Below are positions 17,457 through 32,400 of a DNA stretch of 64,000 nt, in pieces. Made by a program: the position numbers. The first letter of the stretch is position 1. Each line of letters starts with the position of its first letter. The stretch comes from a bacterium (lineage in GTDB: Bacteria > UBA10199 > 2-02-FULL-50-16 > JAJFLM01): NCBI GenBank assembly GCA_965216315.1, contig CBDCFN010000015.1:352001-416000 (forward strand), given 5' to 3'.

Positions 17457-20400
17457 TAATGAGTGAACTCACCGTCGACATCATTACCGCGGAATCGAGC
17501 CTGCTCGTTGGCGCTCCGGCGTCAAGCATCGTCGCTCCGGGTGTCCAGGGGGCCTTTGAGGTCTTGCCAGGGCACACGACCTTTTTGACCGAGTTGGAGA
17601 CGGGTCCCGTGACCGTTGAGGGTCCCGAGGGGACTCAACGCTTTGTTGTCAGTGGTGGTTTCGCCGAGGTCATGATCGGGCATGTCCGCATTCTGGCGGA
17701 CCACGCCAATGCCGTCGCCGCCATCGATGCCGCTCAAGTCGATCAAGACCTCAAGGCCGTTACGGCCGAGCTCGAAGGGGCCGACCCCTTCGCAGCGGAG
17801 ACCGAGGCCTTGCGTAAGCGCCTGAAATTCCTTGAAGTTCAGCGCTCTCTCCTCAGTTAATCTGTATACAATCGTGGACAGCATTCCCGAATAAATTCGC
17901 AACCTTTTTAGGCAGTGGCCGAAGAGTTTGAGCTTGTGGGCGTCCCTCCTGGGTCGGACGGAATGCCTCAATATATTGTGCACTCGTTAAAGAAGGGGTA
18001 TTGGGCATGCCTATTATTGGTTCCTCACTCGGGTTGGGAAACGCTGGGTTATTGGCTGCTGGAGGGGCGAGCCATAACGTTGGTCTCTTCCAAAGTTTCT
18101 TAGGACAAGCGGTTTCACAGGTCATCGCGTCCGATCGTGCCACGGAAGTTGTCGAGGGCTTGCTCTCACAACCCAATCACGGCACCCTTCTCCAAGAGTC
18201 CGGCATCCAGGCCGAGAGCAGTGAGGACATTCTCGAACAAATAGCCGGTTCCACGGAATATGCCCGCCGTGCCCTCGACAACAGGGAACTCCTCGAGGGG
18301 ATTATTGCCAGTTTTGTTACCCAGGGTCAGGTTGAACTGGGCGATGAGTTTGCGGTTCTCCTCAATCCCGTCACAGCGGGTGTCCATTTTACCGCTGCGG
18401 AGCTCGGAGGAATATACAGCCCCGTGGCGGGGACGGATGCGGGCGCGCGTTATGCGCAACCCCTCTCGCATGCGATTCAAACCGAGACCGCGACCCTGCG
18501 GAACGCCCTGAGTGAGGCGACGACTGCGACGCAGCGTTTAATGGATGCGCGTCATGTGGATGCCACGCAAGCGGCCGCAATTAACGCGGTGTGGACGTCG
18601 ATGGCACGCCTGGACCGGCTCCTCAACGTCGATGTCGTGCAGAAACCCGCCCGGCTGGGAGAAATCGATGAGCTCCAAAAGGCAACGGAGGCCTATCTGA
18701 GTGACTTAGGACTTCAACCGATGTCGCAGTTGGCGCTTGAGATGCGTGAAGGCAATTATCGATTCATGCTCCAGGCCCCGGGTCAGGCCAATGAATATAT
18801 TGGTCTGTTTAAACAGGTCTATGGGCGGTCGGATGTTGCCCGTCGTTTTGTCGACGAGATCGTGATTCCGGCGTTGCGCTCCGAAGGCATTGACGTCAAC
18901 GAATATCTGGACATGGATCCGGCCCAACTCAGCCTCGAGCAGAATAAAGCGGTCCTCAATAGCTCGCGTATTTCGCAGCCGATGATACTGGCGACGCAGC
19001 TGGCGCTGCTGGAAGAATTGAAGTCCTATGGCTTTGATCCGCAGTTTTTTACCGCGGGTTCCGGGCATTCCCAAGGGTTATTGTTGGCGTCGGTAGCGGC
19101 CGGCAAGACAGGTCCGGCTGAAGCCCTGCGCATTGTGGCTATTCACGGACGTGAGATGCAGAACGGCACCAAGGCGGCGAACACGAAGGTGCCGATGGTT
19201 TCCGTGCTGGGTATTTCGCGCATGGAAGCCGCGCGCATGAGTAATGAGATCAATTTGCACTTAGCGCTCGTCAACGGGATACCCGGTGAGACGGCTCCAC
19301 TCAATCCCTCACAGTTGCGCGAACTCAAGGAAAAGGCCGATTCCGATATGCTGTATGGCCGGCTTTTTCCGGTCGAAAAAATGGCCCAGGATCCGGCGTT
19401 GCGTGCGGCCTATCCTTTCTTTGCCCGTTATTTTAACCGCGATTTTCATCTGACGGACGAAGAGATTCGCAAGTTGGGTCTGCCGCGTGGCCTCAATGAG
19501 AGCGCCGCCTTTATCATTCGTGGTGACATGGAAACGACCTATACGGCACTGATCAATATGGAACCGAGTGATGGTTCCCGAACTCGCGGCGTCATGCCGG
19601 CGTTCATCTTTTCCGGGACGCATCAGGCTCAGGAGTTGGTGTTAGGATTATTGGGCAACAAACAAGCCGGAACCGAACCCCATCCCGCGTTTCGCAATGT
19701 CGGGTATAATTTTAATAAGAAAGAAGAGACGACCTTTCCCAAGACGGCAGTCTTGATCACCTCATCACCGTTCCATCATGCCGGGGAACAACGGGCTGCC
19801 TTTGAAAAATCCGTTGCGCGTGCCGATGAGACCCGTGGGGAGGCGACTTTTCCCGTCGTGCTCAACAGCGAGCCCGCGAGTTTTGCCGAACTCGGATTGA
19901 CGCCCCAGCAGGAGGCCCAGCGGATTACGGCGGAACAACATGTGCGCCACGTCGATTGGCCGGCAACGGTCGAAAAAATGCTGACTTTTGGCGATCAGAC
20001 GAAACCGGCTGTATTTGTCAGCATGGGAGACGGAGTGGTGGCGGGTTTTACCGCAGCGACAACCGCGGGTCGTGCGACGACGATTGCCGCGGCCAATAAA
20101 GATGGCAGTGGCTTTGCTCAACTGACTTCACGCAAATCCGCAGGGCTCCGCTTGAGGACCGCCCCACTGGCCGACCGCAGTATCTATGAGCCGATCGAAG
20201 CCCAGGTCTTGGCGGGGCGACCGAACGTCGATGGCCAGTATCTGGGGCCCATAGGCTATCTCTCCAGCGTCACACTCGGCAATGATAAGCAACGCCTGGA
20301 TCTGATTCGCCGCATCCGGAAGGTCGTCGATTTTTCGGATCCCATGCATCCCAAGTTCAATAACGATGAAATTCTAGCACGCCTGGGGGCCGAAGGACCT

Positions 20401-29400: not shown

Positions 29401-32400
29401 TTACAGCGCACCATTGCTGATTTGACGCGTCGTCACGGTGAGGATCCTGTCTTGAGCCAGGCCATGGCCCTTTGGGTCTATCAGATGGCGGCCCAGAATC
29501 GTTTAAATGAAGTAAGTTGGGCACAGGTCCGGCAGTTGTGGGCGAATCGCCAGACGGCTGCTGCAGAATAGCAACGCAACGAGTTGTAGAAGGAGAGAAG
29601 CATGTTTGCATCAATTGGAATGACGTCACTTTATTCCATGGCCGTCCCGACGCTGGCCTCATCGAGTTTTGATATGGCCCTGACTTCAGTGCGCAATTTG
29701 GTCGTGGAAATCAGCGGCAACCAAGCAGCCGCCCAGGCTCCGGCGACGGCAGAATTTACGGATTTTATGGGTTCGGATCTCTTGCCAACGGTCTTGACGG
29801 GATTGGCGAATGCCGTCGGCGAAGATGCCGATACGCTGCGCGGTAAGAAAATTATGACTTTTGGTCAGGCGGCTCAGTATATTCTGGATCGCTCCTAAGC
29901 GCGACGACACTCACGATCGCATCCCCTGCACGATGGACGATGCCTTCGGCATGATGGGCCTGCCATTGACGCAAGCCGGCCAAGCTTCCCCCGCTTAATT
30001 CCAGTCGGTGCCAACGTTCCGTTTCAAGTGGCGCGTTAAACTCGCGGTACATCCACATATTATGACGCGCATCCGGATGGTGCGGGTAGAGGGCCTTGAA
30101 GATCGCCTCACTGATCGCATGACGTTCGGCCATCTGATGGGCACTGGGCCGCGTGTCACCGGGAAACAGCTCTTGGTAGCGGTCTTTAGGGAAATAAATC
30201 TTGGGATCTCCTGGTCCCCACCAGCCTTCTTCGTGGCGCCAAAAAACCCGGGCATCGGCCAGATCGATACCCAGACCGAGAAGATGCGGTGTTTGATGGG
30301 CCGCGCGAATACTCAATAAGCCGAGGGACAAACGGCCCACATCAGTAAAGCTGAGCCGGATATCACCAATGTTGCGCGCCTGTCTTATGCGCTCGAGTGG
30401 TTCGGATAACTGAAACTGCGCGAGACCCGTGTCTGGATCGGGAAAAATTTCAATATCCTGAGGACTCCAGAGGGTATCTCCGCATTCCGGGGCTTGATCG
30501 GTGAGGTATTGCCAGAGGGCCCGCTTGATCTCGATCCAGTTTGTTAGCTTGCGAATCTGTTCCTCGGGATGGTCCTTGAGGGCGGCGATACGTTCCATAA
30601 AGTAGCCCTGCTGCTCCGCGGGAGAAAAATAGTGAGTGATGAGACTGAGGGGCTCGCGACGCTGTTGGCGGCCAATGGGCTGCGTGTCAGCGGCCCAAAA
30701 GATCAGCCCGTGCAGGGGATCCGTCCGGCTTCGGGCGCGCTTAATGACGCGGAGTTGATGCTTGTCCGAATGAATGATGTCGGGGCTGACGGGACCCTGA
30801 AAGAGGGCATTAAGCTCCTGTGCGAAGTCAATCCAGCGCTGGCGTTCGCGCCTCTTGGGTGAAAGCTTCATGGGACGGTAGCCCCGGTAGACCTTTAGTT
30901 CACGTTGTTTTTCGTGACGTGTTTGCCGGGCCGCAAAGGTCTTGGGCAGGAGTCTCTGTCCGAGTTCACGACCGAGATCGAGGCTGAGACTGACCATCAA
31001 GGCCTGACCGGCAAGTCCTAAGGAGGCCCCGAAGAAGCCCGTGTCGCCGGCGATAGACAGGCCTAATAAGATGGCGCCAAATTGGAGACCTTCGCGCAAG
31101 AGAAAGCGGTAGACCTTGCCGGCCGTACTCAGTTCGCTGCGTCGTCCAGGCTTATTCAACAGTCCGTGTTGCAGGAGCCAGGTTGTGGCCTGCTCTTCCG
31201 TCCAGGCGGCGGCCTTGACCAGGCCGACGACGGCCGCAACCGAGGCCGTCGTCGAAAGGAGGTCGGCACCGGAAACGGCGGCCTCACCGGCCGCGAGCTG
31301 ACCGATGGCCTGCTCAATGTTGTGCGTGACGCTTAAGGTGACGGTCTCCGCCGCCAAGCCGATGCCGCGGGCCTTCAATAAGTCGCTCGACTCGGGGCTA
31401 AGCGGATTGATCTCAGCCCCTCGATCAATGGCATTGTCGACGGTTTCGCCCGCCAGCATATTTACGGTGTTGGCAGCGAGACCCCCGAGGAGGCTCGAAG
31501 AGGCCAGGATCGTCGATTGAGTACATACAGGCAACATCGTCCCTGTTTCGGCGAGCGGGACGGACTGTTGCTCGAAAATGAGCAATAATTAGCCTTTATT
31601 TTCAAAGACTTGTCAGATATCACTTTGTTAGCGAGGAGACTCGGATGTCGGTCAGTGATCGTGCGAAAAAAATGAAGCCCTTTTTGGCCATGGAACTTTT
31701 GGAGAAGGTTCAGGCCGCCCAGGCCGAGGGGCGCGATGTTATTTCCCTCGCACTCGGCGAACCAGACTTTGACGCGCCAGAATGCGTCAAGAAATCTATT
31801 GGTGCTGCAATCGCCGCGAACGAGACCAAATACACTCACAGCCAAGGATTGATGGGGCTTCGCGAGGAAATCTGTCGCCATTATTATGAGCGTTATAAAG
31901 TTGAAATTAGCCCAGAGCGCGTCATAGTGACGTCGGGAACTTCGCCGGCCTTGGTCCTGATTTTTGGGGCCCTGCTTGACGCGGGTGAGGAGTTCATCCT
32001 GCCGGACCCTCATTATCCCTGCTACCCGAGTTTTGTCCAATTCCTGAACGGTCAACCCGTCTACGTCCCCGTCGCGGAAGCTGACGGTTTTCAGTACCGG
32101 CCGGAAGAGGTCAAAAAGCGCGTCACGAACCAGACCAAGGGAATCATGCTGACCTCGCCGGCGAACCCGACGGGGACGATTATGGACGCCGATACGATGG
32201 AACAGATGGCTGAACTGGTAGGGGCGCCGCTTGCTGCGCCCGATAAAGGCCCCTACATTGTCAGCGACGAGATTTATCATGGGCTCGTGTATGAACCAAT
32301 TGCGCCGGGTGACGCGGGACACATTTTCGCGAACGAGACTTCAGCGAGCGAGCCGAAAATCGTGTCGCAGCGGCAGGACCCGGCCACTCGTTGCGAACAT

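Follow-up and report, generated by a model that had tools for sequence, protein, structure and literature searches.

The window, the whole 64,000-nucleotide stretch of DNA that was analyzed, encodes a giant protein that is probably an active, strongly diverged type I fatty acid synthase (FAS I) of the microbial (fungal/bacterial) type. Judging from sequence comparison and structural models, an acetyl/starter transferase (AT), an FMN-type enoyl reductase (ER), a MaoC-type dehydratase (DH), a malonyl/palmitoyl transferase (MPT), a candidate carrier region, an SDR ketoreductase (KR), and a Cys-His-His ketosynthase (KS) all lie on one chain. The gene is a single open frame on the forward strand (18007..29571), giving 3,854 amino acids plus stop from the ATG at 18007 or 3,856 amino acids from a TTG start at 18001. 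The run atpA, atpG, atpD, and atpC (13579..17860, forward strand) lies directly upstream, and no terminator-like site was seen in the 146 nt between atpC and the FAS frame. On the other side, a gene for a 577-aa protein of no known family (29852..31585, reverse strand) is convergent with the FAS gene and adjoins it in genomes G054 and G055 as well. Apart from this 577-aa protein, the FAS gene has housekeeping neighbors, namely the atp operon and an aminotransferase gene, and none that would serve tailoring or export.

Each half of the protein gives a single colinear hhalign match to a set of 22 canonical FAS I proteins, at ∼19%-20% identity: residues 232-1853 (probability 100%, E = 2e-65, 1,240 columns) and residues 1823-3623 (probability 100%, E = 1.6e-47, 1,536 columns). 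Pfam, NCBIfam, and PDB matches follow one another along the sequence in the order AT-ER-DH-MPT-(ACP region)-KR-KS, and a phmmer comparison with the canonical FAS I of genus g17 yields five colinear segments that correspond to AT, DH, MPT, KR, and KS. Both the colinearity and the domain order bear out the assignment to microbial-type FAS I made in the first-pass annotation. Neither the Pfam models for the FAS I scaffold (Fas1-AflB-like_hel, FAS_meander, FAS_I_H, and Fas_alpha_ACP) nor the Pfam KS models match the window protein, but the hhalign blocks pass unbroken through the noncatalytic scaffold (the helical DUF1729 region, the meander, and FAS_I_H), so that support for the scaffold is confined to profile-profile comparison. 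Two extensions have no counterpart in canonical FAS I. The N-terminal one (residues 1-231; 18007..18699, forward strand) precedes the start of the hhalign match at residue 232 and has only chance-level Pfam matches at E ≤ 10; the C-terminal tail (residues 3624-3854; 28876..29568, forward strand) has no Pfam match and no phosphopantetheinyl transferase (PPT) signature. The dark C-terminal region, previously put at 1,000 residues, therefore shrinks to approximately residues 3624-3854.

The catalytic domains upstream of the KS were recovered at the residues reported earlier, together with the match to fungal FAS beta DH-MPT in the PDB. The AT (residues 254-424; 18766..19278, forward strand) carries a GHSQG motif whose serine, S355, is invariant in all four orthologues (63% identity). 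The NMO/FabK-like ER core (residues 1050-1176; 21154..21534, forward strand) is weak as a stand-alone match to PF03060 (E = 1.1e-3; 18.8 bits against a cut-off of 28); it also matches the FabK model TIGR03151 (E = 5.5e-5) and FabK chains in the PDB, and lies within a colinear hhalign block. The hot-dog fold DH (residues 1702-1791; 23110..23379, forward strand) scores 34 bits against PF01575 (cut-off 27), with an invariant DPNAIHH motif and an invariant H1723. It is directly followed by the MPT (residues 1863-2190; 23593..24576, forward strand), which matches PF00698 (E = 2e-24) and the FabD model TIGR00128 (E = 2.8e-34), and fungal FAS beta chains in the PDB cover residues 1718-1992 of this DH-MPT pair. 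The MPT residues S1965 and R1990 are invariant; we take the latter to be the equivalent of R117 of FabD, the malonyl-binding arginine. The KR (residues 2610-2780; 25834..26346, forward strand) retains Y2769 and K2773 in 4/4 orthologues.

The C-terminal part holds what sequence profiles and a structural model indicate is a genuine, intact KS (residues 2980-3600; 26944..28806, forward strand). The motifs SEACATGPGA, FTHSTGTMG, and FGHGLGAT, from which a KS had been proposed here, are present and invariant in 4/4 close homologs. They contain C3278 (nt 27838-27840), H3466 (28402-28404), and H3506 (28522-28524), which are invariant together with K3501. These four residues and all KS motifs, including RDGF (3378-3381) and NFGFHGEN (3571-3578), align to canonical KS in the Cys-His-His + Lys arrangement of the KAS I/II type. 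C3278 is one of only three cysteines in the 3,854 residues. A profile built from seven divergent relatives from the phylum, with canonical sequences left out, matches KasA in the PDB (E = 5.4e-11) as well as FabF, mycobacterial FAS I (4v8v; E = 2.1e-8), and fungal FAS alpha; in the sequence library, it matches 409 proteins, canonical FAS I and FabF-size proteins among them. The hhalign comparison of the region with canonical KS gives a probability of 99.3% (E = 2.9e-20). With a better alignment, the AlphaFold model of the KS reaches a pLDDT of 87.4 and a pTM of 0.88, replacing the poor model obtained earlier (pLDDT 46), and Foldseek places it closest to mycobacterial FAS (E = 2.9e-32, TM 0.70), with yeast FAS alpha, FabY, and FabF ranking next. 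The profile match and the model together show that the KS, contrary to what had been supposed, has not diverged beyond profile detection.

In the carrier region, an Ala/Pro-rich linker with a remnant of the canonical acyl carrier protein (ACP) core (24634..24891, forward strand) lacks ∼67 residues relative to P0008 and G024, and the missing segment includes helix I and the serine position of the canonical ACP. It is followed by an ACP-like unit (residues 2296-2432; 24892..25302, forward strand) with a candidate phosphopantetheine serine, S2375 (nt 25129-25131), in GGGGGGVDVDSPEF. By hhalign, this unit aligns with the ACP units of P0012, G092, P0011, and P0013 (probability 73%, E = 3e-5), S2375 falling on their serine, and MAFFT places it in the same column; S2375 and its flanks are invariant in 4/4 orthologues. 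On the other side, neither PP-binding nor Fas_alpha_ACP matches the protein, or the carrier subregion alone at E ≤ 10, and an HMM from 109 canonical FAS-ACP sequences finds no match in it. In the colinear alignment with canonical FAS I, the serine-bearing helix falls within the deletion and S2375 sits on a noncarrier VD(A/S)AAL element. Most of the canonical core is missing from P0001-P0004; in the closest outgroups, G024 and P0008, the S2375 column holds Asp and the canonical site Thr, leaving that sister group without an obvious carrier serine in either place. AlphaFold models the carrier region poorly (pLDDT 57.5). The earlier statement that the ACP was not firmly located understated the case, the canonical serine-bearing segment being deleted. 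We suggest S2375 as a candidate attachment site that would be primed by the single Sfp-type PPTase of the genome.

Genome-level absences were checked on a 98.3%-complete assembly. PF02801 has no match; PF00109 has three partial matches, in 399-427-aa frames, of which the one inspected is a thiolase; PF00698 matches are confined to the FAS frame; and FabA/Z, PlsX, and PlsY models have no match. The claim that type II FAS genes are missing accordingly holds for FabF/B, FabD, and FabZ/A as separate genes and for PlsX/Y. It needs amending for FabH: a 361-aa KAS III-fold gene is present, which we rejected as FabH because it scores as a type III polyketide synthase (PKS). The gene inventory is further corrected by a free 81-aa AcpP (TIGR00517, 101 bits, above cut-off; DSL motif) adjoining yceD, and by a PlsB-type glycerol-3-phosphate acyltransferase (GPAT), which shares a lipid locus with a 2,619-aa BC-BCCP-ACC_central-CT-BirA protein (a giant eukaryote-like acetyl-CoA carboxylase, ACC), a thiolase, and an acyl-CoA synthetase. 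Over the whole genome, PF01648 matches only one 247-aa Sfp-type PPTase gene and two chance-level sites, all outside the FAS frame. In an active synthase, AT would load acetyl and MPT malonyl from CoA onto the phosphopantetheine arm, KS would condense them, KR, DH, and ER would reduce the product, and MPT would return the finished chain to CoA. The resulting acyl-CoA would feed the PlsB-type GPAT and probably the type III PKS too, and the giant ACC, whose gene lies in another part of the genome, would supply the malonyl-CoA. Since the genome lacks genes for type II FAS enzymes, the window FAS would be the sole de novo route to fatty acids in the cell and may make all of them.

Among known systems, the FAS I of Mycobacterium and Corynebacterium (4v8l, 4v8v, and 6gjc), the top structural match of the KS model, is likewise a single chain with no PPT and shares the order of the catalytic domains, with an ACP between MPT and KR (AT-ER-DH-MPT-ACP-KR-KS). 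The window protein differs in being ∼750 residues longer, with ∼230-residue extensions at both ends, in its ∼19%-20% identity, and in having no counterpart of the serine segment of the canonical ACP. Fungal FAS (yeast alpha/beta; 2uv8 and 6ql5, among others) matches in its beta DH-MPT and alpha KS by sequence and fold and has an FMN-type ER too; however, it consists of two chains with a C-terminal PPT, whereas the window protein is one chain. All PF01648 matches lying outside the frame, a specifically fungal FAS was rejected. Animal-type FAS and modular type I PKS (KS-AT-DH-ER-KR-ACP(-TE), MDR-type ER) were ruled out, since the window protein ends its domain series with the KS and has an NMO-like ER and two acyltransferases; type II FAS was ruled out as well, AcpP being the only one of its parts encoded.

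Canonical FAS I proved widespread (2,714 proteins at E ≤ 1e-10, including Leptospira, Myxococcota, and Deltaproteobacteria MAGs) and is also present in genus g17 of the same phylum, so its occurrence outside fungi and Corynebacteriales is not in itself new. The g17 protein (G014; its 3,147-aa frame has the same sequence as P0154, "fatty acid synthase, bacteria type") has the domain order of the window protein but, unlike it, matches 12 Pfam families (ketoacyl-synt, 7e-23; Fas_alpha_ACP, 1e-14). A fused ACC follows it, and in a KS tree without fungal sequences, it falls among Deltaproteobacteria-labeled FAS I, far from the window clade. What is new, on sequence evidence, is the divergent family, which is rare: ∼12 representative clusters among 1.84 billion, from one uncultured bacterial phylum and a jakobid protist, Andalucia godoyi. 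In the phylum its distribution is patchy (16 of 93 genomes by profile A2, ∼10 of these strongly). The Andalucia protein (ANDGO_00690, EukProt; P0007, 3,660 aa) is colinear with the window protein over its whole length but belongs to a different subclade, with 24% identity to the window protein compared with 39%-40% to G053-type proteins of the phylum; its ACP serine is still normal (LNLSSLEI), and its cysteine content is 1.9% versus 0.08%. Rearranged relatives (P0011-P0013 and G092; 3,958-4,533 aa) fall in the KS clade of the window protein (SH-aLRT 93, long branches) and share the LGxGA...G(I/V)DS pattern of its candidate carrier unit; their order, unlike that of the window protein, is DH-MPT-ACP x2-3-KS with an NMO-type ER at the C terminus.

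The carrier data leave room for a rather unlikely variant in which the cis carrier is dead and the synthase uses free AcpP (or else CoA thioesters) in trans; it is a variant of mechanism, and functionally it overlaps with the reading of an active FAS I. The largely deleted ACP core of P0001-P0004 and the Thr and Asp of G024 and P0008 favor it, as does the retention of a canonical AcpP beside yceD when all FAS II enzyme genes are gone. However, AcpP is kept in 73 of the 93 phylum genomes irrespective of any synthase, which makes it a nonspecific sign; G054 (94% complete) has an intact orthologue, P0003, with no AcpP above cut-off; and the invariance of S2375 and its alignment to carrier serines of other family members also speak against it. 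To our knowledge, no FAS I uses free ACP. If the variant were true, a type I scaffold would be served by a type II carrier.

It is also unlikely, slightly more so, that the product is a specialized (secondary) lipid or polyketide-like chain while the cell scavenges its membrane fatty acids and activates them with acyl-CoA/acyl-ACP ligases, as in many synthase-less members of the phylum. A FabF model (E ≤ 1e-5) finds no KS match in 48 of the 93 genomes; such members evidently manage without de novo synthesis, and the window FAS need not be primary. The patchiness of the family, the G055 orthologue (in pieces, at least four frames, in a one-contig genome), the acyl-CoA synthetase and thiolase of the lipid locus, the many ligase and beta-oxidation genes noted in the first-pass annotation, and a type III PKS that could use the product as starter are all consistent with this. 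Against it, saturated fatty acid synthesis has as its signature just such a full reducing set (KR, DH, and ER) combined with an MPT that bears the malonyl-binding Arg, the genome also has a dedicated giant ACC and a PlsB-type GPAT, and the genes around the FAS are housekeeping rather than tailoring or export functions. Loss of the canonical carrier serine, the fragmented G055 copy, and the extreme divergence from canonical FAS I could also suggest an inactive relic or structural protein that no longer catalyzes fatty acid synthesis. We consider this highly improbable, since the 11.6-kb frame is still open, all catalytic residues checked are invariant among four orthologues that are 63% identical, and the KS cysteine is among the only three retained.

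A broader and tentative reading, which we hold to be doubtful as a whole, is that the family forms a third lineage of barrel-type FAS I and a deeply divergent one. This lineage would have diversified within an uncultured phylum that replaced type II FAS, giving rise to tandem ACPs, an ER moved to the C terminus, and chains of 3.7-4.5 thousand residues, and would have crossed domains into or from jakobids (A. godoyi) alongside a eukaryote-style multidomain ACC. The window subclade, having lost the canonical carrier serine, would run on a reinvented S2375 site or on free AcpP in trans, in either case a carrier arrangement unseen in any described FAS I.

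The window protein is a real FAS I and belongs to a rare divergent family that had not been recognised before. It is encoded on the + strand by a single open frame running from window position 18001 (TTG) or 18007 (ATG) to 29571, giving 3,854 residues from the ATG. A gap of 146 nt separates the gene from the upstream atpA, atpG, atpD, and atpC; a terminator scan of this gap showed no terminator-like site, and scans of the two ends of the gene found nothing on the + strand that resembles a promoter or a terminator. Only in the window's genome does the FAS gene follow the atp operon, which was not found in the flanking DNA examined at other FAS loci. 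Downstream, a 577-aa protein (window 29852-31585, - strand) has no Pfam match at E ≤ 0.1; its homologue adjoins the FAS gene in two other genomes of the phylum, G054 (45% identity) and G055 (35% identity). A search of sequencing runs gave four that contain the sequence, all from one study, with no RNA run listed among them.

All of the domain matches listed by the first-pass annotation were reproduced: two copies of Acyl_transf_1, the AT at approximately residues 254-424 and the MPT at residues 1863-2190 (E = 2e-24); an NMO/FabK-like stretch (1050-1176, below the Pfam cut-off); a MaoC dehydratase (1702-1791, over the cut-off); an SDR domain (2610-2780); and fungal FAS beta chains in the PDB spanning DH-MPT. 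Compared by phmmer with the canonical FAS I of G014, a genome of the same phylum, the window protein aligns in five colinear segments, corresponding to AT, DH, MPT, KR, and KS. Profile-profile comparison with 22 canonical FAS I proteins gave one colinear match for residues 232-1853 (probability 100%, E = 2e-65, 1,240 columns) and one for residues 1823-3623 (probability 100%, E = 1.6e-47, 1,536 columns). Since each half is thus covered, the noncatalytic scaffold is also homologous to that of canonical FAS I, although the Pfam scaffold models, which fire on the G014 protein, are silent on this one. By the same profile-profile comparison, residues 1-231 and 3624-3854 have no counterpart in canonical FAS I, and Pfam searches at E ≤ 10 with isolated subregions (2240-2420, the tail, the N terminus, and 432-1031) returned nothing meaningful. 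A reading of the tail (3624-3854) as a PPT was supported neither by a PPT search of the genome nor by Pfam.

The ketosynthase that had been claimed for the C-terminal region is confirmed by several lines of evidence. In an alignment with the KS of G014 and G015, the KS hallmarks all fall on their canonical counterparts: ACAT with C3278, RDGF (3378-3381), HSTGT with H3466, KxxFGHGLG with K3501 and H3506, and NFGFHGEN (3571-3578). These are invariant in the window protein and its three closest orthologues (four of four). A profile of seven divergent KS sequences, from which canonical ones were left out, finds 85 different PDB sequences at E ≤ 1, led by KasA (5.4e-11), FabF, mycobacterial FAS I (2.1e-8), and fungal FAS alpha, and hhalign aligns the KS with canonical KS at 99.3% (E = 2.9e-20, 531 columns). 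Against 1.84 billion representatives the KS profile finds 409 proteins at E ≤ 1e-3. The 12 at E ≤ 1e-30 are the divergent family itself (3,660-4,533 residues, plus fragments), and the next tier includes proteins of about 3,000-3,400 and of about 410 residues; of four from this tier examined with Pfam, three are canonical FAS I (P0020, P0021, and P0025) and one is a FabF-like KS (P0022). The AlphaFold model of the KS has a pLDDT of 87.4 and a pTM of 0.88, with the caveat that its 27-row alignment took in canonical and FabF-like rows, though these were admitted on significant sequence scores. Foldseek places mycobacterial FAS first (E = 2.9e-32, TM 0.70), followed by yeast and Candida FAS alpha, FabY, and FabF.

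The family is small. When 5.8 billion clustered proteins were searched by word index, four reached E ≤ 0.001, namely the query and P0002-P0004, whose overall identity to the window protein is 63% in each case. By comparison, when 7,999 candidates were scored against the KS region of the G014 protein, 2,714 matched at E ≤ 1e-10, with sources that include Leptospira species, Myxococcales, Polyangiales, Bradymonadia and Deltaproteobacteria MAGs, and Mycobacterium. Canonical FAS I is therefore widespread in public bacterial data, and its presence beyond fungi and Corynebacteriales, which the first-pass annotation had presented as a novelty, is not new in itself. The phylum holds textbook FAS I as well, in G014 and G015 (genus g17). 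The G014 frame of 3,147 residues matches 12 Pfam families, among them Fas1-AflB-like_hel, SAT, FAS_meander, Fas_alpha_ACP, FAS_I_H, ketoacyl-synt (7e-23), and Ketoacyl-synt_C (4e-13). In both genomes a gene for a fused BC-BCCP-CT carboxylase (at least 1,698-1,857 aa) comes directly after the FAS gene, the two forming a FAS-ACC unit (L034:14906-19999 in G014; L037:2084-7654 in G015). What is new is the divergent family, in the sense that its named members carry only generic labels, "acyltransferase domain-containing protein" or "malonyl CoA-ACP transacylase". As far as the listings and abstracts from a full-text literature search allow us to judge, there is no description of this family, of FAS I in the phylum, or of FAS in Andalucia godoyi.

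A KS-region tree (55 rows, 577 columns; IQ-TREE quick mode, SH-aLRT support only) was rooted on eight FabF-like proteins. All FAS I-type KS form one group (96), which splits into canonical FAS I (100, 32 rows) and the divergent family (93, 15 rows on long branches). G014 and G015 nest among Deltaproteobacteria-labelled sequences in the canonical clade. The divergent family comprises three groups: one with the enoyl reductase at the C terminus (97); one of A. godoyi, P0009, and G053-type proteins (100); and one of the window clade with G024-type proteins (99). The first of these (P0011, P0012 of 4,533 aa, P0013, and the G092 protein, L033:5813-19129) is rearranged, with DH-MPT followed by two or three tandem ACPs and then the KS, and with an NMO-type enoyl reductase at the very C terminus (P0012 residues 4163-4388). 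The program warned that long branches meet, and the tree includes no fungal sequence; we therefore claim neither a direction of transfer nor a position relative to fungi.

The KS identity is settled, while the carrier site and the physiological role are candidate readings. Other family members have clear ACP units, in varying number: three in P0012, two in G092, two of DSL type in G053/P0005 and likewise in G052, and one in the A. godoyi protein and in P0009 (LNLSSLEI). G024 and P0008, the nearest outgroups of the window clade, have an ACP-like unit at the canonical place with Thr (IDT) replacing Ser. The window protein and P0002-P0004 lack about 67 residues of the canonical unit, including helix I and the serine position, and the canonical GGNS serine helix falls into this gap in the colinear hhalign block. 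The putative carrier serine is S2375, within GGGGGGVDVDSPEF, which is invariant in four of four orthologues; hhalign (probability 73%, E = 3e-5) places it on the serine of the ACP units of P0012, G092, P0011, and P0013, and MAFFT puts it in the same column. We rate S2375 as a candidate only, because four points weigh against it. Its column holds Asp in G024 and P0008, and canonical FAS I bears a noncarrier VD(A/S)AAL element there. Pfam sees no ACP in the window protein, even with subregion 2240-2420 at E ≤ 10. AlphaFold models residues 2296-2440 poorly (pLDDT 57.5, pTM 0.41), yet a helix begins directly after S2375. Beyond these four points, an HMM of 109 canonical FAS I ACP regions gave only chance-level matches to 15 family proteins. 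Started from the DSL-type units of P0005 and P0012, jackhmmer recovered tandem ACPs in other family members but none in P0001 (the window protein), P0002-P0004, G024, or P0008. A manual reading of the carrier serine at GADKK was dropped, as the alignments show this stretch to be helix I. The rival to S2375 that stays alive is service in trans by the free AcpP of the genome (81 residues, DSL motif). A housekeeping-type AcpP scores over cut-off in 73 of 93 species genomes of the phylum (all of one class) and FabF in one; the carrier is kept without the type II synthase.

The physiological role has likewise to be weighed against an alternative. The absences reported earlier hold in the window's genome (2.96 Mb, 98.3% complete): genome-wide profile searches found no Ketoacyl-synt_C, FabF (TIGR03150), FabA/Z, PlsX, or PlsY, and no PF00698-type acyltransferase outside the window ORF. 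PF00109 gave three partial matches in frames of 399-427 residues (the one examined is a thiolase). The sole ACP_syn_III_C match is a 361-aa, DpgA-like type III PKS (179 bits), and FabH models score far below their cut-offs. Its gene is followed by one for an ICMT-like methyltransferase (pair at C16:1657281-1658875 = L042:15281-16875), an arrangement that we take to resemble alkylresorcinol-type phenolic lipid operons. A lipid locus (C16, 1622-1642 kb) encodes a PlsB-type GPAT (Acyltransferase and GPAT_C), a thiolase, a 1,992-aa protein, a 2,619-aa ACC fusion, and an acyl-CoA synthetase, a context that fits a step in which the window FAS I would release acyl-CoA to the PlsB-type acyltransferase. 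We infer that the synthase is very probably active. Across the 93 genomes, a KS match at E ≤ 1e-5 occurs in 45, mostly inside frames of 1,000-6,000 residues, and in none of the other 48; de novo synthesis is therefore not obligatory in the phylum, and for this reason the window FAS may instead make a secondary lipid. The only FabF over cut-off is a 306-residue frame on a small contig of G025 (8% contamination); the phylum has largely given up type II FAS and carries varied megasynthases. The window KS region alone matches 10 of the 93 genomes and its profile 16, in frames of 2,879 to 5,246 residues. In the one-contig genome G055, the FAS orthologue (C1:1135155-1146875 = L038:15155-19999 and L039:3-6875) is broken into frames of 409, 578, 669+446, and 1,844 aa, and one of the matches contains an internal TAA; the gene is either a pseudogene or the product of assembly frameshifts; G055 has no other KS match.

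The 2,619-aa protein (C16:1632124-1639980 = L041:10124-17980, - strand) joins a eukaryote-style ACC and a biotin ligase of its own in a single BC-BCCP-ACC_central-CT-BirA frame, the ligase consisting of BPL_LplA_LipB and BPL_C. Directly downstream lies the gene of the 1,992-aa protein (C16:1626045-1632020 = L041:4045-10020, - strand). It matches no Pfam or NCBIfam family, but one stretch (residues 1274-1656) aligns with the carboxyltransferase domain of human and yeast ACC (human ACC1 CT, E = 4.7e-23), and ACC may be divided between two giant proteins. ACC_central (PF08326), the middle region of eukaryote-type ACC, occurs in 22 of 93 phylum genomes versus none of 14 control genomes; in several, among them G029 (C83), G034 (C2), and G081 (C31), a giant frame with a KS stands on the same contig, no more than about 5-15 kb away. 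A 526-aa carboxyltransferase (61530-62984, - strand; PF01039, E = 2e-166), one of three in the genome, is encoded at the window's far end. The acpP gene follows yceD; the usual cluster order is yceD-rpmF-plsX-fab, of which this looks like a remnant. One Sfp-type PPTase (247 residues) is encoded near an NRPS cluster.

The link outside bacteria is P0007, recorded by EukProt as ANDGO_00690 of the jakobid Andalucia godoyi. Its alignment with the window protein is colinear, at 24% identity, and with the phylum's G053-type proteins it shares 39-40% identity along almost the entire chain; a homologue search with it found only two further family members, P0009 and P0269. Its composition, at the level of sequence, argues against simple contamination from this phylum, since P0007 and its closest relative P0009 contain 1.7-1.9% Cys, whereas the other nine divergent-family proteins counted contain 0.05-0.5%. 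The window protein itself is extremely depleted, with three Cys in 3,854 residues (0.08%): C927, C1248, and C3278, the KS nucleophile. ORFs of 300 aa or more in its genome average 1.13%, and three canonical FAS I (P0154, P0186, and P0199) have 0.6-1.0%.

Annotation pipelines label these divergent proteins "acyltransferase domain-containing protein", and would count such genomes among those without fatty acid synthesis. That a synthase fully conserved in other respects has apparently lost its canonical carrier serine is a concrete puzzle that experiments can address. Within one small phylum, FAS I grades from the textbook type into forms that escape standard profiles, domain rearrangements and varying ACP copy number included, and this gradation offers material for studying how the barrel-type megasynthase withstands rewiring. 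A whole-length FAS homologue also links this bacterial lineage with a jakobid protist, in a phylum with eukaryote-type ACC, a pattern that bears on inter-domain transfer of cytosolic lipid synthesis.
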